Below the pieces are notes generated by a model that saw only the letters and a program-made list of their open reading frames with translations, ran no database searches and had not been told where the DNA came from. The translations under genes were made by a program, and so were the position numbers. A stretch of DNA of 64,000 nt from Eledone cirrhosa (Eukaryota): assembly GCA_964016885.1 (NCBI GenBank), contig OZ024740.1, forward strand, positions 219,790,001 to 219,854,000. Reading direction: 5' to 3'. Shown piece by piece: positions 564-58,390 of the stretch; position 1 is the first letter of the stretch; every line of letters starts with the position of its first letter.

Positions 564-702
564 CATCATTTTGTTTTAATTTATCGTTTTCGGTATGCCT
601 GACCGATTTAACTCACTCAATATGCAAATTAGGCAGCTCAGCCGTTAATTTTCATAAGGAAAGTATATACTTTCGAACGTTCAACTATCTGGCAGATGGG
701 TA

Positions 703-747
703 AACGGTGCTGATGATAGCTAACAAGCTTGAAACTAGTACATCGTT
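703..747 (+). ncRNA. Type I hammerhead ribozyme motif (copy 1)
   Basis: aacggtg-CTGATGA-t-agct-aaca-agct-t-GAAA-ctag-TA-catcgtt; helix I 7 bp with one GU; palindromic CTAG helix III loop; predicted cleavage after 740; U.U at the base of helix II is non-canonical. Confidence 0.8.
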
Positions 748-1168
748 CCTGTGTCAGTGTTGAACAAAAAGGTGACGTGGTTGCCTTAACACCGTATGGC
801 ATAAATTCAGGCTGTTCAGTTTGTTTACAAACGAACAAAGCGACGTTAGCGCCGCTAAACTGATACGTGCATATATGTATGTGTACCTGTATGCATATGT
901 ATGTATATATGTATATATATATATATATGTGCATGCTACTGTACGTCTGTATACATATATGTATGTACGTATACATGCATACTTGCATTTAAGTAAGTGC
1001 CATACTAAGAGTGAGAAATGAAATTTTGTTTTCATTTTGTTTTAATTTATCGTTTTCGGTATGCCTGACCGATTTAACTCACTCAATATGCAAATTAGGC
1101 AGCTCAGCCGTTAATTTTCATAAGGAAAGTATATACTTTCGAACGTTCAACTATCTGGCAGATGGGTA

Positions 1169-1213
1169 AACGGTGCTGATGATAGCTAACAAGCTTGAAA
1201 CTAGTACATCGTT
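1169..1213 (+). ncRNA. Type I hammerhead ribozyme motif (copy 2)
   Basis: Identical to 703-747, 466 nt downstream; predicted cleavage after 1206. Confidence 0.8.
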
Positions 1214-1501
1214 CCTGTGTCAGTGTTGAACAAAAAGGTGACGTGGTTGCCTTAACACCGTATGGCATAAATTCAGGCTGTTCAGTTTGTTTACAAACGA
1301 ACAAAGCGACGTTAGCGCCGCTAAACTGATACGTGCATATATGTATGTGTACCTGTATGCATATGTATATATATATATATATGTGCATGCTACTGTACGT
1401 CTGTATACATATATGTATGTACGTATACATGCATACTTACATTTAAGTAAGTGCCATACTAAGAGTGAGAAATGAAATTTTGTTTTCATTTTGTTTTAAT
1501 T

Positions 1502-1804
<303 letters not shown>

Positions 1805-3774: not shown

Positions 3775-5005
3775 GAAGTGTAGTTATGACTAATGTGCAG
3801 GTATGGCTTTGATACAAGCATATCTATGTAGGTATGTAGGTATATGTCTTATGTAAGGGTATGACTGAGGGGGAGGTATGACTAAGGTGTAGGTATGTCT
3901 TATGTATAGGTATGACTGAGGTGGAGGTATGACTGAGATGTGTAGGTATGTCTGAAGTGTAGTTATGACTGAGATGTACGTATGACTGAGGTGGAGGTAT
4001 GACTGAGGTGGAAGTATGTCTGAGGTGTAGGTATGACTGAGGTGGAAGTATGTCTGAGGTGTAGGTATGACTGAGGTGTAGGTATGTCTGAAGTGTAGGT
4101 ATGACTGAGATGTACGTATGACTGAGGTGGAAGTATGTCTGAAGTGTAGGTATGACTGAGATGTAGGTATGACTAAGGTGGAGGTATGATTGAGGTGGAA
4201 GTATGACTGAGGTGGAAGTATGTCCTAGGTGTAGGTATGACTGAAGTGTAGGTATGTCTGAGATGTAGATATGTCTGAAGTGTAGGTATGACTGAGGTGT
4301 AGGTATGACTGAGGTGTAGGTAGGACTAATGTGGAGGTATGTCTAAGATGGCGGTATGACTGAGGTGGAAGTATGAATGAGGTGGAGGTATGACTGTGGT
4401 GGAGGTATGTCTGAAGTGGAGGTATGTGTGAAGTGGACATATGATTGATGTGGAGTTATGACTGAGGTGTAGGTATGACTAATTTAGAGGTATGACTGAG
4501 ATGTAGGTATGACTGAGGTAGCAGTATGACTAAGCTGGAGCTATGTCTGCGGTGGAAGTGTGTCTGTGGTGGAGGTATGACTGAGGTGGAAGTATGACTG
4601 AGGTGGAGGTATGACTGAGATGTGTAGGTATGTCTGAAGTGTAGTTATGACTGAGATGTAGGTATGACTGAGGTGGAAGTATGACTGAGGTGTATGTATG
4701 TCTGAAGTGTAGGTATGTCTGAAGTGTAGTTATGACTGAGATGTAGGTATGACTGAGGTGGAAATATGACTGAGGTGTAGGTATGACTGAGGTGTAGGTA
4801 TGTCTGAGATGTAGATATGTCTGAAGTGTAGGTATGACTGAGGTGTAGGTATGTCTGAAATGTAGGTATGACTAAGGTGTAAGTATGACTGAGATGGAAG
4901 TATGACTAATGTGCAGGTATGTCTGACGTGGAAGTATGACTGAGATGGAGATATGACTGCGGTGTATCTATGTCTTATGTATAGGTATGACTAAGGTGGT
5001 AGTAT
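3775..5005. repeat. 17-bp minisatellite (gtatgactgaggtgtag)
   Basis: Degenerate tandem units visible directly. Confidence 0.9.
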
Positions 5006-5082: not shown

Positions 5083-6690
5083 TGATGATAAAATATGTAA
5101 ACCTCCCTACTGCTGATGCCATAATAAAATATAACATGACTACTTTCCTATAGCTGGTGCCATGATAAAATATGAAAACCTCCCTATAGCTGGTGCCATG
5201 ATAAAATATGACAACCTCCCTAGTGCTGGTGCCATGATAAAATATGACAACCTCCCTGGTGCTGGTGCCATGATAAAATATGACAACCTCCCTAGTGCTG
5301 GTGCAATGATAAAATATGACAACCTCCCTAGTGCTGGTGCAATGATAAAATATGACAACCTCCCTACTGCTGGTGCCATGATAAAATATGACAACCTCCC
5401 TGGTGCTGGTGCCATGATAAAATATGACAACCTCCCTAGTGCTGGTGCAATGATAAAATATGACAACCTCCCTAGTGCTGGTGCAATGATAAAATATGAC
5501 AACCTCCCTAGTGCTGGTGCAATGATAAAATATGACAACCTCCCTAGTGCTGGTGCAATGATAAAATACGTGGTAACTTTCCTAGTGTTGATGCCATGAT
5601 AAAAAATGATATGACAACCTCCTAGTACTGGTGCCATGATAAAATATGACATGACAACCTTCCTATTCCTATTGCTGGTGCCATGATAAAATATGATAAC
5701 CTCCCTAGTGCTGGGGCTATGATAAAAAAATATGGCAGGACAACATCCCTAGTGCTGGTGCCATGATAAAAGATGACAACCTCCCTACTGCTGGTGCCAT
5801 GATAAAAGATGACAACCTCCCTACTGCTGGTGCCATGATAAAATATGACAACCTCCCTAGTGTTGGTGCCATGATAAAATATGACAACCTCCCTAGTGTT
5901 GGTGCCATGATAAAATATGACAACCTCCCTACTATTGGTGCCATGATAAAATATGACAACCTCCCTAGTGTTGGTGCCATGATAAAATATGACAACCTCC
6001 CTAGTGTTGGTGCCATGATAAAATATGACAACCTCCCTACTATTGGTGCCATGATAAAATATGACAACCTCCCTAGTGTTGGTGCCATGATAAAATATGA
6101 CAACCTCCCTAGTGTTGGTGCCATGATAAAATATGACAACCTCCCTACTATTGGTGCCATGATAAAATATGACAACCTCCCTAGTGTTGGTGCCATGATA
6201 AAATATGACAACCTCCCTAGTGTTGGTGCCATGATAAAATATGACAACCTCCCTACTATTGGTGCCATGATAAAATATGACAACCTCCCTAGTGTTGGTG
6301 CCATGATAAAATATGACAACCTCCCTACTATTGGTGCCATGATAAAATATGACAACCTCCCTAGTGTTGGTGCCATGATAAAATATGACAACCTCCCTAG
6401 TGTTGGTGCCATGATAAAATATGGCAGGACAACATCCCTTGTGCTGGTGCCATGATAAAATATGACAACCTACCTAGTGCTGGTGCCATGATAAAATATG
6501 GCAGGACAACATCCCTAGTGCTTGTGCCATGATAAAAGCTGACATGACAACCTCCCTATTGCTGGTGCCATGATAAAATATGACAACCTCCCTAGTGCTG
6601 GTGCCATGATAAAATATGACAACCTCCTTAGTGTTGGTGCCATGATAAAATATGACATGACAACCTCCCTCTAGTGCTGGTACCATGATA
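5083..6690. repeat. 36-bp minisatellite (catgataaaatatgacaacctccctagtgctggtgc)
   Basis: Tandem units; explains the 12-aa periodic ORFs. Confidence 0.95.
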
Positions 6691-18188: not shown

Positions 18189-18244
18189 ACTGCCTGATGA
18201 GGTCATAGCCATTCAATGGCTATCATCGAAATACATATAGCAGT
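18189..18244 (+). ncRNA. Type I hammerhead motif in a short insert (about 18125-18290) within (TA)n
   Basis: actgc-CTGATGA-ggtcatagccattcaatggctatcatc-GAAA-tacata-TA-gcagt. Confidence 0.8.
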
Positions 18245-23174: not shown

Positions 23175-26100
23175 ATGTGTATATGTGAATGTGTTGTGTA
23201 TGTGAATGTGTTGTGTATGTGAGTGTGTTGTGTATGTGAGTGTGTTGTGTATGTGAATGTGTTGTGTATGTGAGTGTGTTGTGTATGTGAATGTGTTGTG
23301 TATGTGAATGTGTTGTGTATGTGAGTGTGTTGTGTATGTGAATGTGTTGTGTATATGTGAATGTGTTGTGTATGTGAATGTGTTGTGTATGTGAGTGTGT
23401 TGTGTATGTGAATGTGTTGTGTATGTGAATGTGTTGTGTATGTGAATGTGTTGTGTATGTGAATGTGTTGTGTATGTGAGTGTGTTGTGTATGTGATGTG
23501 TTGTGTATGTGAATGTGTTGTGTATGTCAGTGTGTTGTGTATGTTAATGTGTTGTGAATGTGTTGTGTATGTGAGTGTGTTGTGTATGTGAGTGTGTTGT
23601 GTATGTGAATGTGTTGTGTATGTGAATGTGTTGTGTATGTGAATGTGTTGTGTATGTCAGTGTGTTGTGTATGTGAATGTGTTGTGTATGTGAGTGTGTT
23701 GTGTATGTGAGTGTGTTGTGTATGTGAGTGTGCTGTGTATGTGAATGTGTTGTGTATGTGAGTGTGTTGTGTATGTGAATATGTTGTGTATGTGAGTGTG
23801 TTGTGTATGTGAGTGTGTTGTGTATGTGAATGTGTTGTGTATGTTAATGTGTTGTGTATGTGAATGTATTGTGTATGTGAGTGTGTTGTGTATGTGAATG
23901 TGTTGTGTATGTGAGTGTGTTGTGTATGTGAATGTGTTGTGTATGTGAGTGTGTTGTGTATGTGAATGTGTTGTGTATGTGAGTGTGTTGTGTATGTGAA
24001 TGTGTTGTGTATGTGAGTGTGTTGTGTATGTGAGTGTGTTGTGTATGTGAATGTGTTGTGTATGTGAGTGTGTTGTGTGTGTGAGTGTGTTGTGTATGTG
24101 CTGTGTATGTGAATGTGTTGTGTATGTGAATGTGTTGTGTATGTGAGTGTGTTGTGTATGTGAGTGTGTTGTGTATGTGAATGTGTTGTGTATGTGAATG
24201 TGTTGTGTATGTGAATGTGTTGTGTATGTGAATGTGTTGTGTATGTGAATGTGTTGTGTATGTGAGTGTGTTGTGTATGTGAATGTGAATGTGTTGTGTA
24301 TGTGAATGTGTTGTGTATGTGAATGTGTTGTGTATGTGAATGTGTTGTGTATGTGAATGTGTTGTATATGTGAATGTGTTGTGTATGTGAATGTGTTGTG
24401 TATGTGAATGTGTTGTGTATGTGAATGTGTTGTGTATGTGAGTGTGCTGTGTATGTGAATGTGTTGTGTATGTGAATGTGAGTGTGTTGTGTATGTGAAT
24501 GTGTTGTGTATGTGAATGTGTTGTGTATGTGAATGTGTTGTGTATGTGAATGTGTTGTGTATGTGAGTGTGCTGTGTATGTGAATGTGTTGTGTATGTGA
24601 GTGTGCTGTGTATGTGAATGTGTTGTGTATGTGAATGTGTTGTGTATGTGAGTGTGTTGTGTATGTGAATGTGTTGTGTATGTGAATGTGTTGTGTATGT
24701 GAATGTGTTGTGTATGTGAGTGTATTGTGTATGTGAGTGTGTTGTGTATGTGAGTGTGTTGTGTATGTGAATGTGTTGTGTATGTGAATGTGTTGTGTAT
24801 GTCAGTGTGTTGTGTATGTGAATGTGTTGTGTATGTGAGTGTGTTGTGTATGTGAATGTGTTGTGTATGTCAGTGTGTTGTGTATGTGAATGTGTTGTGT
24901 ATGTGAGTGTGTTGTGTATGTGAGTGTGTTGTGAGTGTGCTGTGTATGTGAATGTGTTGTGTATGTGAGTGTATTGTGTATGTGAGTGTGTTGTGTATGT
25001 GAGTGTGTTGTGTATGTGAATGTGTTGTGTATGTGAATGTGTTGTGTATGTGAGTGTGTTGTGTATGTGAGTGTGTTGTGTATGTGAATGTGTTGTGTAT
25101 GTGAATGTGTTGTGTATGTGAATGTGTTGTGTATGTGAATGTGTTGTGTATGTGAATGTGTTGTGTATGTGAATGTGTTGTGTATGTGAATGTGTTGTGT
25201 ATGTGAATGTGTTGTGTATGTGAGTGTGCTGTGTATGTGAATGTGTTGTGTATGTGAATGTGTTGTGTATGTGAGTGTGTTGTGTATGTGAATGTGTTGT
25301 GTATGTGAATGTGTTGTGTATGTGAATGTGTTGTGTATGTGAATGTGTTGTGTATGTGAGTGTGCTGTGTATGTGAATGTGTTGTGTATGTGAGTGTGCT
25401 GTGTATGTGAATGTGTTGTGTATGTGAATGTGTTGTGTATGTGAGTGTGTTGTGTATGTGAATGTGTTGTGTATGTGAATGTGTTGTGTATGTGAATGTG
25501 TTGTGTATGTGAGTGTATTGTGTATGTGAGTGTGTTGTGTATGTGAGTGTGTTGTGTATGTGAATGTGTTGTGTATGTGAATGTGTTGTGTATGTCAGTG
25601 TGTTGTGTATGTGAATGTGTTGTGTATGTGAGTGTGTTGTGTATGTGAATGTGTTGTGTATGTCAGTGTGTTGTGTATGTGAATGTGTTGTGTATGTGAG
25701 TGTGTTGTGTATGTGAGTGTGTTGTGAGTGTGCTGTGTATGTGAATGTGTTGTGTATGTGAGTGTATTGTGTATGTGAGTGTGTTGTGTATGTGAGTGTG
25801 TTGTGTATGTGAATGTGTTGTGTATGTGAATGTGTTGTGTATGTGAGTGTGTTGTGTATGTGAGTGTGTTGTGTATGTGAATGTGTTGTGTATGTGAATG
25901 TGTTGTGTATGTGAATGTGTTGTGTATGTCAGTGTGTTGTGTATGTGAGTGTGTTGTGTATGTGAGTGTGTTGTGAATGTGAGTGTTTTGTATATGTGAA
26001 TGTGTTGTGTATGTGAATGTGTTGTGTATGTGAGTGTATTGTGTATGTGAGTGTGTTGTGTATGTGAGTGTGTTGTGTATGTGAATGTGTTGTGTATGTG

Positions 26101-29100
26101 AGTGTGTTGTGTATGTGAATGTGTCGTGTATGTGAGTGTGTTGTGTATGTGAGTGTGATGTGTATGTGAGTGTGTTGTGTATGTGAGTGTGTTGTGTATG
26201 TGAGTGTGTTGTGTATGTGCTGTGTATGTGAATGTGTTGTGTATGTGAATGTGTTGTGTATGTTAATGTGTTGTGTATGTGAGTGTGTTGTGTATGTGAA
26301 TGTATTGTGTATGTGAGTGTGTTGTGTATGTGAGTGTGTTGTGTATGTGAGTGTGTTGTGTATGTGAGTGTGTTGTGTATGTGAATGTGTTGTGTATGTG
26401 AATGTGTTGTGCATGTATATGTGCTGTGTATGTGAATGTGTTGTGTATGTGAATGTGTTGCGTATGTGAATGTGTTGTGTATGTGTATGTGAATGTGAAT
26501 GTGTTGTGTATGTGAGTGTGTTGTGTATGTGAGTGTGTTGTGTATGTTAGTGTGTTGTGTATGTGTTGTGTATGTGAGTGTGTTGTGAATGTGTTGTGTA
26601 TGTGAATCTGTTGTGTATGTGAATGTGTTGTATATGTGAATCTGTTGTGTATGTGAATGTGTTGTGTATGTGAGTGTGTTGTGTATGTGAGTGTGTTGTG
26701 TATGTGAGTGTGTTGTGTATGCGAATGTGTTGTGTAGGTGAATGTGTTGTGTATGTGAATGTGTTGTGTATGTGGGTGTGTTGTGTATGTGAATATGTTG
26801 TGAATGTGTTGTGTATGTGAGTGTGTTGTGAATGTGAGTGTGTTGTGAATGTGTTGTGTATGTGAATGTGTTGTGTATGTGAGTGTGTTGTGTATGTGAG
26901 TGTGTTGTGAATGTGTTGTGTATGTGAATGTGTTGTGTATGTGAGTGTGTTGTGTATGTGAGTGTGTTGTGTATGTGAGTGTGTTGTGTATGTGCTGTGT
27001 ATGTGAATGTGTTGTGTATGTGAATGTGTTGTGTATGTGAATGTGTTGTGAATGTGTTGTGTATGTGAATGTGTTGTGTATGTGACTGTGTTGTGTATGT
27101 GAATGTATTGTGTATGTGAGTGTGTTGTGTATGTGAGTGTGTTGTGTATGTGAGTGTGTTGTGTATGTGAGTGTTTTGTGTATGTGAGTGTGTTGTGTAT
27201 GTGAGTGTGTTGTGTATGTGAGTGTGTTGTGTATGTGAGTGTGTTGTGTATGTGAGTGTGTTGTGTATGTGAGTGTGTTGTGTATGTGAGTGTGTTGTGT
27301 ATGTGAGTGTGTTTCGTATGTGAGTGTGTTGTGTATGTGAGTGTGTTGTGTATGTGAGTGCGTTGTGTATGTGAGTGTGTTGTGTATGTTCTGTGTATGT
27401 GAATGTGTTGTGTATGTGAATGTGTTGTGTATGTGAGTGAGTTGTGTATGTGAATATGTTGTGAATGTGAATGTGTTGTGTATGTGAGTGTGTTGTGTAT
27501 GTGAGTGTGTTGTGTATGTGAATGTGTTGTGTATGTGAGTGTGTTGTGTATGTGAATGTATTGTGTATGTGAATGCGTTGGGAATGTGAGTGTGTTGTGT
27601 ATGTGAGTGTGTTGTGTATGTGAATGTGTTGTGTATGTGAATGTGTTGTGTATGTGAATGTGTTGTGTATGTGAGTGTGTTGTGTATGTGAATGTGTTGT
27701 GTATGTGAGTGTGTTGTGTATGTGAATGTGTTGTGAATGTGCTGTGTATGTGAATCTGTTGTGTATGTGAATGTGTTGTGTATGTTAATGTGTTGTGTAT
27801 GTGAATGTATTGTGTATGTGAATGTGTTGTGTATGTCAGTGTGTTGTGTATGTGAATGTGTTGTGTATGTGAATGTGTTGAGTATGTGAGTGTGTTGTGT
27901 ATGTGAGTGTATTGTGTATGTGAGTGTGTTGTGTAAGTGAATGTGTTGTGTATGTGAATGTGTTGAGTATGTGAGTGTGTTGTGTATGTGAGTGTATTGT
28001 GTATGTGAGTGTGTTGTGTAAGTGAATGTGTTGTGTATGTGAATGTGTTGTGTATGTGAATGTGTTGTGTATGTGAGTGTGTTGTGTATGTGAGTGTGTT
28101 GTGTATGTGAGTGTGTCGTGTATGTGAATCTGTTGTGTATGTGAGTGTGTTGTATATGTGAATGTGTTGTGTATGTGAATGTGTTGTGTATGTGAGTGTG
28201 TTGTGTATGTGAATGTGTTGTGTATGTGAATGTGTTGTGTAAGTGAATGTGTTGTGTATGTGAATGTGTTGTGTATGTGAATGTGTTGTGTATGTGAGTG
28301 TGTTGTGTATGTGAGTGTGTATGTGTATGTGAATGTGTTGTGTATGTGAATGTGTTGTGTATGTGGGTGTGTTGTGTATGTGAATATGTTGTGAATGTGT
28401 TGTGTATGTGAGTGTGTTGTGAATGTGAGTGTGTTGTGAATGTGTTGTGTATGTGAATGTGTTGTGTATGTGAGTGTGTTGTGTATGTGAGTGTGTTGTG
28501 AATGTGTTGTGTATGTGAATGTGTTGTGTATGTGAGTGTGTTGTGTATGTGAGTGTGTTGTGTATGTGAGTGTGTTGTGTATGTGCTGTGTATGTGAATG
28601 TGTTGTGTATGTGAATGTGTTGTGTATGTGAATGTGTTGTGAATGTGTTGTGTATGTGAATGTGTTGTGTATGTGACTGTGTTGTGTATGTGAATGTATT
28701 GTGTATGTGAGTGTGTTGTGTATGTGAGTGTGTTGTGTATGTGAGTGTGTTGTGTATGTGAGTGTTTTGTGTATGTGAGTGTGTTGTGTATGTGAGTGTG
28801 TTGTGTATGTGAGTGTGTTGTGTATGTGAGTGTGTTGTGTATGTGAGTGTGTTGTGTATGTGAGTGTGTTGTGTATGTGAGTGTGTTGTGTATGTGAGTG
28901 TGTTTCGTATGTGAGTGTGTTGTGTATGTGAGTGTGTTGTGTATGTGAGTGCGTTGTGTATGTGAGTGTGTTGTGTATGTTCTGTGTATGTGAATGTGTT
29001 GTGTATGTGAATGTGTTGTGTATGTGAGTGAGTTGTGTATGTGAATATGTTGTGAATGTGAATGTGTTGTGTATGTGAGTGTGTTGTGTATGTGAGTGTG

Positions 29101-32100
29101 TTGTGTATGTGAATGTGTTGTGTATGTGAGTGTGTTGTGTATGTGAATGTATTGTGTATGTGAATGCGTTGGGAATGTGAGTGTGTTGTGTATGTGAGTG
29201 TGTTGTGTATGTGAATGTGTTGTGTATGTGAATGTGTTGTGTATGTGAATGTGTTGTGTATGTGAGTGTGTTGTGTATGTGAATGTGTTGTGTATGTGAG
29301 TGTGTTGTGTATGTGAATGTGTTGTGAATGTGCTGTGTATGTGAATCTGTTGTGTATGTGAATGTGTTGTGTATGTTAATGTGTTGTGTATGTGAATGTA
29401 TTGTGTATGTGAATGTGTTGTGTATGTCAGTGTGTTGTGTATGTGAATGTGTTGTGTATGTGAATGTGTTGAGTATGTGAGTGTGTTGTGTATGTGAGTG
29501 TATTGTGTATGTGAGTGTGTTGTGTAAGTGAATGTGTTGTGTATGTGAATGTGTTGAGTATGTGAGTGTGTTGTGTATGTGAGTGTATTGTGTATGTGAG
29601 TGTGTTGTGTAAGTGAATGTGTTGTGTATGTGAATGTGTTGTGTATGTGAATGTGTTGTGTATGTGAGTGTGTTGTGTATGTGAGTGTGTTGTGTATGTG
29701 AGTGTGTCGTGTATGTGAATCTGTTGTGTATGTGAGTGTGTTGTATATGTGAATGTGTTGTGTATGTGAATGTGTTGTGTATGTGAGTGTGTTGTGTATG
29801 TGAATGTGTTGTGTATGTGAATGTGTTGTGTAAGTGAATGTGTTGTGTATGTGAATGTGTTGTGTATGTGAATGTGTTGTGTATGTGAGTGTGTTGTGTA
29901 TGTGAGTGTGTATGTGTATGTGAATGTGTTGTGTATGTGAGTGTGTTGTGTAAGTGAATGTGTTGTGTATGTGAATGTGTTGTGTATGTGAGTGTGTTGT
30001 GTATGTGAGTGTGTATGTGTATGTGAGTGTGTTGTGTATGTGAGTGTGTTGTGTATGTGAGTGTGTTGTGTATGTGAGTGTGTTGTGTATGTGAGTGTGT
30101 TGTGTATTTGAGTGTGTTGTATATGTGAATGTGTTGTGTATGTTAATGTGTTGTGTATGTGAGTGTGTTGTGTATGTGAATGTGTTGTGTATGTGAATGT
30201 GTTGTGTATGTGAATGTGTTGTGTATGTGAATGTGTTGTGTATGTGAGGGTGTTGTGTATGTGAGTGTGTTGTGTATGCGAATGTGTTGTGTATGTGAGT
30301 GTGTTGTGTATGTGAGTGTGTTGTGTATGTGAGTGTGTTGTGTATGTGAATGTGTTGTGTATGTGAATGTGTTGTGCATGTATATGTGCTGTGTATGTGA
30401 ATGTGTTGTGTATGTGAATGTGTTGCGTATGTGAATGTGTTGTGTATGTGTATGTGAATGTGAATGTGTTGTGTATGTGAGTGTGTTGTGTATGTGAGTG
30501 TGTTGTGTATGTTAGTGTGTTGTGTATGTGTTGTGTATGTGAGTGTGTTGTGAATGTGTTGTGTATGTGAATCTGTTGTGTATGTGAATGTGTTGTATAT
30601 GTGAATCTGTTGTGTATGTGAATGTGTTGTGTATGTGAGTGTGTTGTGTATGTGAGTGTGTTGTGTATGTGAGTGTGTTGTGTATGCGAATGTGTTGTGT
30701 ATGTGAATGTGTTGTGTATGTGAATGTGTTGTGTATGTGGGTGTGTTGTGTATGTGAATATGTTGTGAATGTGTTGTGTATGTGAGTGTGTTGTGAATGT
30801 GAGTGTGTTGTGAATGTGTTGTGTATGTGAATGTGTTGTGTATGTGAGTGTGTTGTGTATGTGAGTGTGTTGTGAATGTGTTGTGTATGTGAATGTGTTG
30901 TGTATGTGAGTGTGTTGTGTATGTGAGTGTGTTGTGTATGTGAGTGTGTTGTGTATGTGCTGTGTATGTGAATGTGTTGTGTATGTGAATGTGTTGTGTA
31001 TGTGAATGTGTTGTGAATGTGTTGTGTATGTGAATGTGTTGTGTATGTGACTGTGTTGTGTATGTGAATGTATTGTGTATGTGAGTGTGTTGTGTATGTG
31101 AGTGTGTTGTGTATGTGAGTGTGTTGTGTATGTGAGTGTTTTGTGTATGTGAGTGTGTTGTGTATGTGAGTGTGTTGTGTATGTGAGTGTGTTGTGTATG
31201 TGAGTGTGTTGTGTATGTGAGTGTGTTGTGTATGTGAGTGTGTTGTGTATGTGAGTGTGTTGTGTATGTGAGTGTGTTTCGTATGTGAGTGTGTTGTGTA
31301 TGTGAGTGTGTTGTGTATGTGAGTGTGTTGTGTATGTGAGTGTGTTGTGTATGTGCTGTGTATGTGAATGTGTTGTGTATGTGAATGTGTTGTGTATGTG
31401 AGTGAGTTGTGTATGTGAATATGTTGTGAATGTGAATGTGTTGTGTATGTGAGTGTGTTGTGTATGTGAGTGTGTTGTGTATGTGAATGTGTTGTGTATG
31501 TGAGTGTGTTGTGTATGTGAATGTATTGTGTATGTGAATGCGTTGTGAATGTGAGTGTGTTGTGTATGTGAGTGTGTTGTGTATGTGAATGTGTTGTGTA
31601 TGTGAATGTGTTGTGTATGTGAATGTGTTGTGTATGTGAGTGTGTTGTGTATGTGAATGTGTTGTGTATGTGAGTGTGTTGTGTATGTGTGTATGTGAGT
31701 GTGTTGTGTATGTGCTGTGTATGTGAATGTGTTGTGTATGTGAATGTGTTGTGTATGTTAATGTGTTGTGTATGTGAGTGTGTTGTGTATGTGAATGTAT
31801 TGTGTATGTGAGTGTGTTGTGTATGTGAGTGTGTTGTGTATGTGAGTGTGTTGTGTATGTGAGTGTGTTGTGTATGTGAGTGTGTTGTGTATGTGAGTGT
31901 GTTGTGTATGTGAGTGTGTTGTGTATGTGAGTGTGTTGTGTATGTGAGTGTGTTGTGTATGTGAGTGTGTTGTGTATGTGAGTGTGTTGTGTATGTGAGT
32001 GTGTTGTGTATGTGAGTGTGTTGTGTATGTGAGTGTGTTGTGTATGTGAGTGTGTTGTGTATGTGAGTGTGTTGTGTATGTGAATGTGTTGTGTATGTGA

Positions 32101-33530
32101 GTGTGTTGTGTATGTGAGTGTGTTGTGTATGTGAGTGTGTTGTGTATGTGAGTGTGTTGTGTACGTGAGTGTGTTGTGTATGTGAGTATGTTGTGTATGT
32201 GAGTGTGTTGTGTATGTGAGTGTGTTGTGTATGTGAGTGTGTTGTGTATGTGAGTGTGTTGTGTATGTGAGTGTGTTGTGTATGTGAGTGTGTTGTGTAT
32301 GTGAGTGTGTTGTGTATGTGAGTGTGTTGTGTATGTGAATGTGTTGTGTATGTGAATGTGTTGTGTATGTGAGTGTGTTGTGTATGTGAATGTGTTGTGT
32401 ATGTGAGTGTGTTGTGTATGTGAGTGTGTTGTGTATGTGAATGTGTTGTGTATGTGAATGCGTTGTGAATGTGAGTGTGTTGTGTATGTGAGTGTATTGT
32501 GTATGTGAATGTTTTGTGTATGTGAGTGTGTTGTGTATGTGAAGGTGCTGTGTATGTGAATGTTATCTGTATGTGAATGTGTTGTGTATGTGAATGTGTT
32601 GTGTATGTGAGTGTGTTGTGTATGTGAGTGTGTTGTGTATGTGAATGTGTTGTGTATGTGAGTGTGTTGTGTATGTGAATGTGTTGTGAATGTGTTGTGT
32701 ATGTGAATGTATTGTGTATGTGAGTGTGTTGTGTATGTGAGTGTATTGTGTATGTGAATGTGTTGTGTATGTGAGTGTGTTGTGTATGTGAATGTGTTGT
32801 GTATGTGAGTGTGTTGTGTATGTGAATGTATTGTGTATGTGAATGTGTTGTGTATGTGAGTGTGTTGTGTATGTGAGTGTGTTGTGTATGTGAATGTGTT
32901 GTGTATGTGAATGTGTTGTGTATGTGAGTGTGTTGTGTATGTGAATGTGTTGTGTATGTGAATGCGTTGTGAATGTGAGTGTGTTGTGTATGTGAGTGTA
33001 TTGTGTATGTGAATGTTTTGTGTATGTGAGTGTGTTGTGTATGTGAAGGTGCTGTGTATGTGAATGTTATGTGTATGTGTATGTGTTGTGTATGTGAATG
33101 TGTTGTGTATGTGAGTGTGTTGTGTATGTGAGTGTGTTGTGTATGTGAATGTGTTGTGTATGTGAGTGTGTTGTGTATGTGAATGTGTTGTGAATGTGTT
33201 GTGTATGTGAATGTATTGTGTATGTGAGTGTGTTGTGTATGTGAGTGTATTGTGTATGTGAATGTGTTGTGTATGTGAGTGTATTGTGTATGTGAATGTG
33301 TTGTGTATGTGAGTGTGTTGTGTATGTGAATGTGTTGTGAATGTATTGTGTATGTGAATGTGTTGTGTATGTGAGTGTGTTGTGTATGTGAGTGTGTTGT
33401 GTATGTGAATGTTTTGTGTATGTGAATGTGTTGTGTATGTGAGTGTGTTGTGTATGTGAGTGTGTTGTGTATGTGAGTGTGTTGTGTATGTGAGTGTGTT
33501 GTGTATATGAATGTCTTGTGTATGTGAGCG
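23175..33530. repeat. 10.3-kb 17-bp satellite (gtgttgtgtatgtgaRt)
   Basis: About 600 tandem units; two main variants, gaat and gagt. Confidence 0.97.
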
Positions 33531-48248: not shown

Positions 48249-48722
48249 GAAAGGTATAGAAAGTATTGTAGCAAGAAGCCAACAGTATTCCATAATATAT
48301 CATCATCATCATTTCATTTTATGTCCGCTTTTCCCTGCTTGCAAGGGTGGGACGGGAACTGATTCTGGCTTGATTTCTACAGCTGGATGCCCTTCCTAAC
48401 ACCAACCTCATTTACAGTGAGTGCTGGGTGCTTTTTTACCGTGGCACCTCCATGACCACTTTGCAGTGGAATGATAGGGACCCCAGTCCCTATCATCTCA
48501 TATATATATATATATATATATATTTTATGGTGAACTAACTGTTGTGTAACCACTTCTACCTAGTCTCTCAGACTGAGTGCGCTACCACATTACCTTCCAG
48601 TGTTCCACCACTATATATATATATATATATTCTTATATAAATATATATACATTGTTATATATATACATTATATATATATAGATTCTTATATAAATATATA
48701 TACATTGTTATATATATACATA

Positions 48723-49484
48723 TCCTGTCTGGCCCTCTGGAGAATAGAGGAAATGTGTTTCCTTGAAAACTCGTATGACTCTAAAACCCGGTCCGTCTGT
48801 GTGGTTACATACAGACTAGCTGACACTCACTGTAAAGTGTCTAGTGAAAAACTGAGTACATGTACATATGTATACATGTGTGTATTTATAGGCATACTAA
48901 TACTTCCGTATACATATGTAGATGTACACTTTAACTTAATTGTTTAAGCGTCAGTCATACAAAAGTGAGTTAGAAGCGAAACGAAATTTAATTTCGTTTC
49001 GTTATTTGTTTTTATCGTTTCCGCTGAACCGGTGCGTACAATGACTCACGTTCTATGCAAATTAGTCTACCCACTACTAATTTTCATAGAAAAAGCATAT
49101 AACGATATGTGCTTTTACAATTCTCCAGAGAAGCCGGAAGATGGGTAAATATTGCTGATGAGATGTAATAACATCGAAACTAGTCCAATATTCCTGTCTG
49201 GCCCTCTGGAGAATAGAGGAAATGTGTTTCCTTGAAAACTCGTATGACTCTAAAACCCGGTCCGTCTGTGTGGTTACATACAGACTAGCTGACACTCACT
49301 GTAAAGTGTCTAGTGAAAAACTGAGTACATGTACATATGTATACATGTGTGTATTTATAGGCATACTAATACTTCCGTATACATATGTAGATGTACACTT
49401 TAACTTAATTGCTTAAGCGTCAGTCATACAAAAGTGAGTTAGAAGCGAAACGAAATTTAATTTCGTTTCGTTATTTGTTTTTAT
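48723..49484 (+). mobile_element. 1.6 tandem units (469-nt period) of a hammerhead-bearing retrozyme-like element (family A2)
   Basis: 48723-49015 repeated at 49192-49484; 29-nt flanking direct repeat tatatatacattgttatatatatacatat (48695-48723 and 49482-49510); homologous blocks to 567-1504. Confidence 0.82.
49148..49192 (+). ncRNA. Canonical type I hammerhead ribozyme motif
   Basis: aatattg-CTGATGA-gatgt-aata-acatc-GAAA-ctag-TC-caatatt; perfect helices I and II; GUC cleavage after 49185; helix I extends (agatggg/cctgtct) past a TA bulge. Confidence 0.92.
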
Positions 49485-49599
49485 ATATACATTGTTATAT
49501 ATATACATATATATATATTTTTTTTTATATAAATATATATATATTGTTATATATATACATACATATATATTGTTATATATATACATACATATATATATA

Positions 49600-57192: not shown

Positions 57193-57409
57193 GTGTCACA
57201 AGAAGACATTGTATTGGGTATAAGCTATAAATTGAAACAAAGTATACTTTGCTGTACTCTGGTGAAACCAACTATGTAGATGATGATGTTAATTTTCCCC
57301 AGGTTAACATTGATCAAAGATGGCATTCCATCTTTTTATGTGAATCTAGCACTACATGTGATTTGATAATCCATTTACCTATTTCACTGTTGCAATCATA
57401 TCTATATCT

Positions 57410-58390
57410 ATGTTGCTATTCTATATATTTCTATGTTGTTATTCCACATATTTCTATGTTGCTATTCTATATATTTCTATGTTGCTATTCTATATATTAC
57501 TATGTTGCTATCGCACGCATTACTATGTTGCTATCGCACACATTACTATGTTGCTATCGCACGCATTACTATGTTGCTATCCCACACATTACTATGTTGC
57601 TATCGCACACATTACTATGTTGCTATCCCACACATTACTATGTTGCTATTCCACACATTACTATGTTGCTATCGCACACATTACTATGTTGCTATCCCAC
57701 ACATTACTATGTTGCTATTCCACACATTACTATGTTGCTATTCCACACATTACTATGTTGCTATCGCACACATTACTATGTTGCTATTCCACACATTACT
57801 ATGTTGCTATTCCACACATTACTATGTTGCTATCGCACACATTACTATGTTGCTATCCCACACATTACTATGTTGGTATTCCACACATTACTATGTTGCT
57901 ATTCCACACATTACTATGTTGCTATCCCACACATTACTATGTTGCTATTTCACACATTACTATGTTGCTATCGCACACATTACTATGTTGCTATCGCACA
58001 CATTACTATGTTGCTATTCCACACATTACTATGTTGCTATCGCACACATTACTATGTTGCTATCGCACACATTACTATGTTGCTATCGCACACATTACTA
58101 TGTTGCTATCGCACACATTACTATGTTGCTATCGCACACATTACTATGTTGCTATCGCACACATTACTATGTTGCTATCGCACACATTACTATGTTGCTA
58201 TCCCACACATTACTATGTTGGTATCCCACACATTACTATGTTGCTATCCCACACATTACTATGTTGCTATTCCACACATTACTATGTTGCTATTTCACAC
58301 ATTACTATGTTGCTATTCCACACATTACTATGTTGCTATTTCACACATTACTATGTTGCTATCGCACACATTACTATGTTGCTATTCCAT
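57410..58390. repeat. 23-bp minisatellite (cacattactatgttgctatcgca)
   Basis: About 42 units; explains the three long periodic ORFs. Confidence 0.95.

Follow-up and report, generated by a model that had tools for sequence, protein, structure and literature searches.

Non-coding hammerhead retrozymes of Eledone cirrhosa with insertion ends of the Penelope type

Introduction

Metazoan non-LTR retrozymes, found in coral, mussel and axolotl and including satellite 2 of the newt, consist of low-GC tandem units with a canonical type I hammerhead (PMC7229834, in the part compared here). The same part describes a very short palindromic helix III, copies that range from monomers to long arrays and number in the thousands, several families per genome, and a predicted circle that is highly self-paired. 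The repeat families of Eledone cirrhosa described below share all of these features. They share a detail with axolotl HHR_Amex2 as well, which has U.U at the base of helix II, as does our family A. Differences from that account lie in the unit, which is 466-469 bp here and 150-450 bp there, and in the fixed, paired 3' ends and inverted arms, which we find in Eledone and which are absent from the account as compared. In addition, expression and cleavage have been demonstrated for the retrozymes of PMC7229834 and are predicted for the Eledone families.

The second point of comparison is the Penelope-like elements with a pseudo-LTR (pLTR) and a tail, as described in the consulted parts of PMC3846280 and PMC8557442. 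Their arms lie head to head and their tail is one-sided; in PMC3846280 it is present on one of the inverted repeats. Together with the lizard element PAc Poseidon, they resemble our families in their AT-rich or (TA)n targets, two fixed 3' ends, an upstream hammerhead, occasional target duplications, and short overlaps at the inner junction. In vitro, the protein of PAc Poseidon introduces nicks on each strand of AT-rich DNA; two internal starts of reverse transcription, used on both nicked strands and with no strand difference in the start, define the genomic tail, and insertion is independent of ribozyme cleavage (PMC11167929). Unlike the Penelope-like elements of these sources, the Eledone families have a tail of 59-69 nt rather than 30-40, end sites 230-310 nt downstream of the cut, a canonical rather than a minimal ribozyme, and tandem units with neither a reading frame nor a coding body.

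A preprint on vertebrate retrozymes (bioRxiv 10.64898/2026.07.22.740005), in the part compared, likewise proposes dependence on Penelope-like elements, of which retrozymes would be non-autonomous derivatives, and describes monomer, dimer and multimer organisation; the Eledone families fit this proposal. It argues from co-occurrence and from pLTR homology in Xenopus and includes no mollusc, whereas our case is built on an insertion footprint; in its in vitro assays, one of nine predicted Xenopus retrozyme dimers was cleaved. Arguments on how retrozymes move in animals have so far relied on co-occurrence and, for frogs, on sequence resemblance to the terminal repeats of Penelope elements. In Eledone, thousands of young copies bear the Penelope-type insertion footprint itself. 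Dimer-type hammerheads, one-sided tails and the retrozyme class are all known, and the finding extends this picture rather than overturning it. A literature search whose scope took in the main account of PMC7229834 listed no cephalopod retrozyme; among the titles it returned on Penelope tails, inversion and twin priming, none concerned a counted rule of long/short pairing.

The stretch of DNA analysed here, called the window, comprises 64,000 nucleotides of E. cirrhosa (GenBank assembly GCA_964016885.1, contig OZ024740.1, positions 219,790,001 to 219,854,000, forward strand). It lies on the contig labelled C1 in our searches, which covered a genome of 3.0 Gb. The window holds insertions of two retrozyme families, A and B (Table 1). 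An initial annotation, made from the letters of the window, had proposed that the second is a diverged relative of the first whose hammerhead covaries with it and which spreads by retrotransposition from self-cleaved RNA.

Table 1. Features of the two retrozyme insertions in the window (window coordinates)
Feature	Position	Strand	Remark
Family-A retrozyme insertion	566..1504	+	466-bp unit x2, two hammerheads
Family-A predicted cuts	after 740 and 1206	+	in insertion 566-1504
Family-B retrozyme insertion	48723..49484	+	762 bp: a full unit of 469 bp, then 293 bp; lacks an inverted arm
Left 29-nt repeat copy	48695..48723	+	possible target-site duplication within TA minisatellite
Right 29-nt repeat copy	49482..49510	+	exact match to 48695-48723
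Blocks common to families A and B, upstream of ribozyme	49012..49088	+	includes octamer-like ATGCAAAT at 49055-49062
Long closing stem continuing helix I	49121..49213	+	would link both ends of a cleaved monomer
Type I hammerhead motif	49140..49198	+	sole complete hammerhead of insertion 48723-49484
TA bulge	49146-49147	+	in hammerhead motif
Helix I	49148-49154/49186-49192	+	in hammerhead motif
CTGATGA core	49155-49161	+	in hammerhead motif
Helix II	49162-49166/49171-49175	+	loop AATA
GAAA core	49176-49179	+	in hammerhead motif
Palindromic helix III ACTAGT	49179..49184	+	likely partner: identical palindrome in a second ribozyme copy
Predicted cut	after C49185	+	in hammerhead motif
Short fixed 3' end site	49410..49418	+	unit positions ~225-233; internal in the window copy
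Tail separating the two end sites	49416..49484	+	~69 nt; perfect hairpin just 5' of long end
Long fixed 3' end	49484	+	unit position ~299 past cut; abuts TA-rich target

Two related insertions

The family-B insertion is built on a unit of 469 bp: positions 48723-49015 recur at 49192-49484 with 1 mismatch in 292 compared positions. Repeat comparison inside the window thus confirmed the unit lengths of 469 and 466 given initially, and the homology of the two families also held. A global alignment of A with B has 300 identical columns out of 440 (68%; shuffles reach 55% +/- 2), and local alignment of the complete unit gives a z value of 22. Taken separately, the blocks that precede the ribozyme reach 9.3, but the 120 nt that follow it only 1.9. 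Seven of the eight colinear blocks first listed are exact and colinear in both families; in the remaining one, catac.aa.agtgag, family B lacks one base. The family-A insertion stops at the site homologous to the long end of B and is followed by (TA)n.

The window copy of family B ends at the long site, without an inverted arm, and has a single complete ribozyme, so it could not release a monomer alone. It would also be classed as not active under the two-ribozyme rule in the consulted part of bioRxiv 2026.07.22.740005. We infer that its last position, 49484, is the distal start of reverse transcription; the equivalent of the short site at 49410-49418 serves as the end of the opposite arm in inverted insertions. 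The 5' end of the copy, 48723, had been placed within about 6 nt of the cut and is measured at +7 from the predicted cut. The flanking 29-nt repeat is exact, as described, but taken alone it is no proof of target-site duplication, because its 17-nt core occurs five times in about 1 kb of degenerate TA minisatellite.

Hammerhead structure and conservation

With its closing stem, the hammerhead region folds at -36 kcal/mol (z -5.75). The Rfam model Hammerhead_HH9 matches 49137-49207 with an E value of 7e-6 and 31.8 bits, under its gathering score of 52, and an Rfam scan of the whole window gave no match at or above gathering score. The NUH rule requires a base other than G at position 17; among the 44 distinct hammerhead sequences listed, that position is A, C or T in every one.

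Covariation in the helices, as described in the initial annotation, was borne out across 14 subfamily sequences. These represent three families and about seven subfamilies, so that cells overcount events and relatedness can by itself beat shuffles; with that reading, 92.9% of cells are paired and 11 of 17 pairs show change on both sides, none of 500 shuffles scores as high, and structures slid out of register are 33-49% paired. Invariance of the remaining parts held for the TA bulge and the AAYA loop. It did not hold for every part of the core: family B has GUC as its cleavage triplet, family A has GUA, and GUU is found in further subfamilies, while the basal pair of helix II is G-C in B, against U.U in A. 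CTAG has the sequence described, but it is not an ordinary loop; it forms the centre of a palindromic helix III, which had been overlooked.

This helix consists of one or two pairs around a palindrome, ACTAGT in families A and B and ACGCGT in a third family, C. Pairing of ACTAGT with a second copy would give a 6-bp duplex with a computed energy of -5.4 kcal/mol. Under a search pattern that allowed three palindromic and six non-palindromic helix III centres, all 100 matches listed were palindromic, 96 of these belonging to the one family C. The palindrome suggests that two ribozymes work together as a dimer, which would agree with the usual metazoan type I hammerhead, whose very short palindromic helix III works in this way (PMC4209133, in the part consulted). 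Folded as circles, the monomers of A and B reach z values of -9 to -13 with 66-69% of bases paired; for family C, z is -3.8.

Families, copy number and arrays

Exact family-B hammerheads number 9,305 in the genome (control 0). An exact pattern with helix III ACTAGT, searched genome-wide, has 23,648 matches (control 0) and one with other helix III centres 18,814 more (control 41), so that the two related patterns together exceed 42,000. Family C, which supplies 96 of the 100 matches listed for the latter pattern, has a tandem unit of 310 bp. Its layout follows that of A and B: it has the TA bulge, a basal pair of helix II that is either U.U or A.U, the palindrome ACGCGT, and GUA as triplet; it has a closing stem of 16 bp, and its arrays also occur head to head, for example at L052/L053 (C1:5544272-5546336) and at many other loci.

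Family B comprises at least three subfamilies, with median distances between loci of 3-9%. Copies range from partial monomers to arrays of more than 18 kb, and the GC content of the unit is 0.36-0.37. No conserved reading frame was found in the units, and the longest stop-free frames fall below the shuffle mean in four of five B arrays. An apparent relic frame of 84 codons across the ribozyme of subfamily B1 was put down to chance, as 30% of shuffles match it and it is absent from B2 and B3. By its sequence features the element is a metazoan non-LTR retrozyme, a class already known: the unit carries a canonical type I hammerhead, short tandem units occur in many copies, and the sequence is low in GC and non-coding. 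Elements of this class lack an LTR, a primer-binding site and a polypurine tract, and their target duplications, where present, exceed 4 bp; the unit ends in Eledone are not LTR-like.

Fixed 3' ends and head-to-head arms

Family-B insertions end at one of two sites about 69 nt apart, mostly adjoining (TA)n. In a hand tally of loci chosen by internal sequence, 30 of 33 outer ends lay at unit positions 226-233 or 299-303 past the cut; the ends of family A fall mostly near 251 and 310. Across the genome, TA adjoins 2,307 long ends and 204 short ends of the strict pattern, with controls at 0. We fetched 130 TA-joined loci from C1 and the start of C2, a set that overlaps with the internally chosen one, and dropped L157 and L229 as duplicates of L156 and L228. 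The preference for TA is built into the remaining 128 loci, as they were chosen by a TA-joined end.

The two ends are paired by a strong rule. Of 98 loci anchored on a long end, 8 ran off the fetched sequence. An arm in head-to-head position is present in 66, another 9 keep a very small piece of the short end in inverted orientation, and 15 lack an inverted arm. Where the partner end is visible, it is the short site in 50 of 53 cases, another long site in none, and elsewhere in 3. Among the 30 short-anchored loci (1 ran off, 19 inverted, 10 not inverted), the 19 inverted ones have 16 long partners, 1 short and 2 elsewhere. Long is thus paired with short in 66 of the 72 inverted insertions with both ends seen (Fisher p 1.5e-14). 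At the inner junction, where the two arms meet, they overlap in 40 of 85 cases, abut in 16, and are separated by a gap in 29.

These insertions have the footprint of the Penelope type: two fixed 3' ends, a tail on one side, head-to-head arms, and an AT-rich target. The fixed paired ends, which the initial annotation had overlooked, are the tail signature of Penelope; they agree with the two internal starts of reverse transcription of the lizard element and link the retrozyme to Penelope-like machinery. Long direct repeats that include letters other than T and A flank 5 of the 104 loci with both flanks (L139, L166, L169, L220 and L233), the clearest being about 55 nt at L169; TA targets hide the remaining target duplications. 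The 29-nt repeat of the window copy fits with these long repeats, though it lies in a minisatellite.

An inverted duplication of the flank was rejected as a rule, since a scan of the 104 loci gave inverted matches of only 6 letters. By eye, a stretch of flank is inverted beyond the insertion at L128 (7 nt past TA) and at L048/L053 (about 30 nt), perhaps from strand switching in a TA palindrome.

Coding Penelope-like elements

The genome contains 10,596 GIY-YIG candidates. One family has a frame of 938 aa with matches to reverse transcriptase (RT) and GIY-YIG, the RT match falling below the Pfam cut-off, and it has a cysteine motif before the endonuclease, like Neptune and Nematis in the consulted part of PMC8557442. 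Its loci include L101:2809-5622 (-), L102, L106, L109, L110 and L112. The 3' repeat carries a hammerhead-like motif with the palindrome ACCGGT, and the family has two ends about 62 nt apart that run into (TA)n. A long and a short end lie on opposite strands at L106, L112, L182 and L281. In the hammerhead-like motif of this family, UUGANAA replaces CUGANGA, which swaps the 3-8 pair; related hammerhead-like motifs occur in other coding families as well.

A coding partner would be recognised by a terminal repeat shared with A, B or C. Among 40 GIY-YIG loci compared by blastn, drawn from the 150 that were scored among the 10,596 candidates, none had one; the matches that did appear were nested insertions or simple repeats. 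At L112 the candidate partner was set aside, as family A starts past the TA-joined end of the coding element itself. A further 20 loci, taken at array ends and at rare hammerhead variants, had no attached Penelope frame, and no frame with RT and GIY-YIG was found inside the units or attached to them, so that the units do not qualify as autonomous Penelope-like elements. At L191, L192, L193 and L217, family-B insertions sit in (TA)n directly past the 3' end of a coding Penelope-like element, a nested use of targets.

Proposed mechanism

Family B is a non-coding 469-bp non-LTR retrozyme with thousands of insertions, in our judgement very probably copied in trans into (TA)n by the RT and endonuclease of a Penelope-like element. 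In this process, arrays would be transcribed, and adjoining ribozymes, held together by their palindromic helix III, would excise monomers for ligation into stable circles. The Penelope protein would nick both strands of a TA-rich target; it would prime the cDNA of one strand from the long start site and that of the other from the short. Both cDNAs would extend for a variable length, usually past the ribozyme site, with a circle or an uncut multimer as template. Finally, the two cDNAs would join head to head, often at a short overlap; alternatively, one arm would be missing and a target duplication left behind, as may have happened in the window copy.

More tentatively, a Penelope-type dimer bound to one circle, or to identical circles, may prime both nicks, with fixed roles of the strands as long and short. 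If so, the 66/72 long/short pairing would preserve in the genome the trace of a two-start reaction whose asymmetry published in vitro work has not resolved, and the footprint of the copies would be direct evidence for mobilisation of animal ribozyme circles by Penelope-like elements. The two exact predicted start sites of reverse transcription, together with the strong long/short rule, make mobilisation testable in vitro with a 469-nt RNA.

RNA template and alternative explanations

Where the arms stop on their 5' side speaks to the template. The 5' ends of 204 arms are scattered round the unit. None lies at +1..+3. The interval +1..+20 holds 15, where 8.7 would be expected (p 0.03), and the flanking windows hold fewer (3 and 5); of all 24-nt windows, 5% reach the number found near the cut. 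The highest peak, at unit positions 251-274 (about 48967-48990 in the window), has 23 ends in 24 nt and coincides with the tail hairpin. The cut site itself is crossed by 151 of 200 arms, and of 270 approaches only 15 stop at +1..+20. Since most arms cross the cut and 5' ends are scattered, most templates were probably circles or uncut multimers rather than cut linear monomers, and in most copies the ends are not determined by ribozyme cleavage. Retrotransposition, as first proposed, is supported as the mode of spread, but a 5' end close to the cut is not supported as a sign that the template was self-cleaved RNA.

The same counts also suit Penelope-driven insertion from an uncut read-through transcript of an array, with a ribozyme that is dispensable or rarely fires and with no circle. 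Long homogeneous arrays are present as a possible source of such transcripts, and ribozyme mutants of the lizard element inserted unimpaired in vitro (PMC11167929). We regard this as the strongest competing account, though an unlikely one. Across the three families, compensatory changes have preserved the core, bulge, loops and long closing stem, which requires selection on the RNA fold; the monomers are also very stable as predicted circles. The weak excess of stops just inside the cut (hazard ratio 2.0 for the stopping rate at +1..+20, p 0.012, in a window chosen after the first 71 loci had been seen) fits the use of some cut templates. The similarity of the two arms is compatible with a single circle and with a homogeneous source array alike: in the six loci with full units in both arms, these units differ by 0-0.4% in four and by 1.2-1.5% in two, and in none of the six is another locus as similar as the opposite arm.

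A different reading takes the units for solo or tandem pseudo-LTRs of a 5'-truncated coding Penelope element that has yet to be found, amplified as a satellite. It draws on the match in end anatomy between our insertions and the coding elements, on how common solo pLTRs are (PMC4209133 and PMC3846280, in the parts consulted), and on the share of GIY-YIG candidates covered (150 of 10,596 scored, 40 loci examined). The arms themselves make it improbable. More than one unit long in 105 of 204 cases, they simply repeat the unit, whereas a coding parent would contribute its own 3' UTR past one length; the units have no conserved reading frame; and among 34 non-inverted B arms, none had a piece of Penelope frame on the same strand within up to 1.5 kb upstream, so that copies occur free of coding Penelope bodies, as the initial annotation expected.

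Reverse transcription of self-cleaved linear RNA, with 5' ends that mark the cut, is highly improbable and is refuted as a general rule, since no arm of 204 begins at +1..+3, the highest 5'-end peak lies elsewhere, and three quarters of arms cross the cut, although the start of the window copy at +7 and the 15 ends at +1..+20 mean that it may apply to a minority of copies, perhaps including the window copy.

Promoter test and other repeats

Newt satellite 2, as cited via the consulted part of PMC2220036, and the octamer-like block of the unit prompted the idea of an internal promoter of the snRNA type. A profile was built from 9 distinct upstream regions of U1 and U2 genes, and 8 of the 9 true promoters scored 16-36 bits when left out. 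The best scores of the A, B and C units were -4 to -10, no better than shuffles, and the idea was dropped. The 12 snRNA genes examined have no octamer in the adjacent 330 bp.

The U1 and U2 genes (L301-L334) lie in tandem arrays and have in common ATTAAA near -90, TCAGT near -57, and a TATA-like element near -30. A TATA-like element is unusual at U1 and U2 genes.

The window contains further repeats. One with a hammerhead-like core and a longer helix II is present in three copies, at 2152 (-), 54034 (-) and 62148 (+); these are likely terminal repeats of another Penelope-like family. Weaker hammerhead-like motifs occur at 18194, 18621, 20602 and 37836. Long minisatellite arrays with 17-bp units occupy 23178-33527 and 3858-4998, and others have units of 36 bp (5085-6657) and 23 bp (57408-58389).
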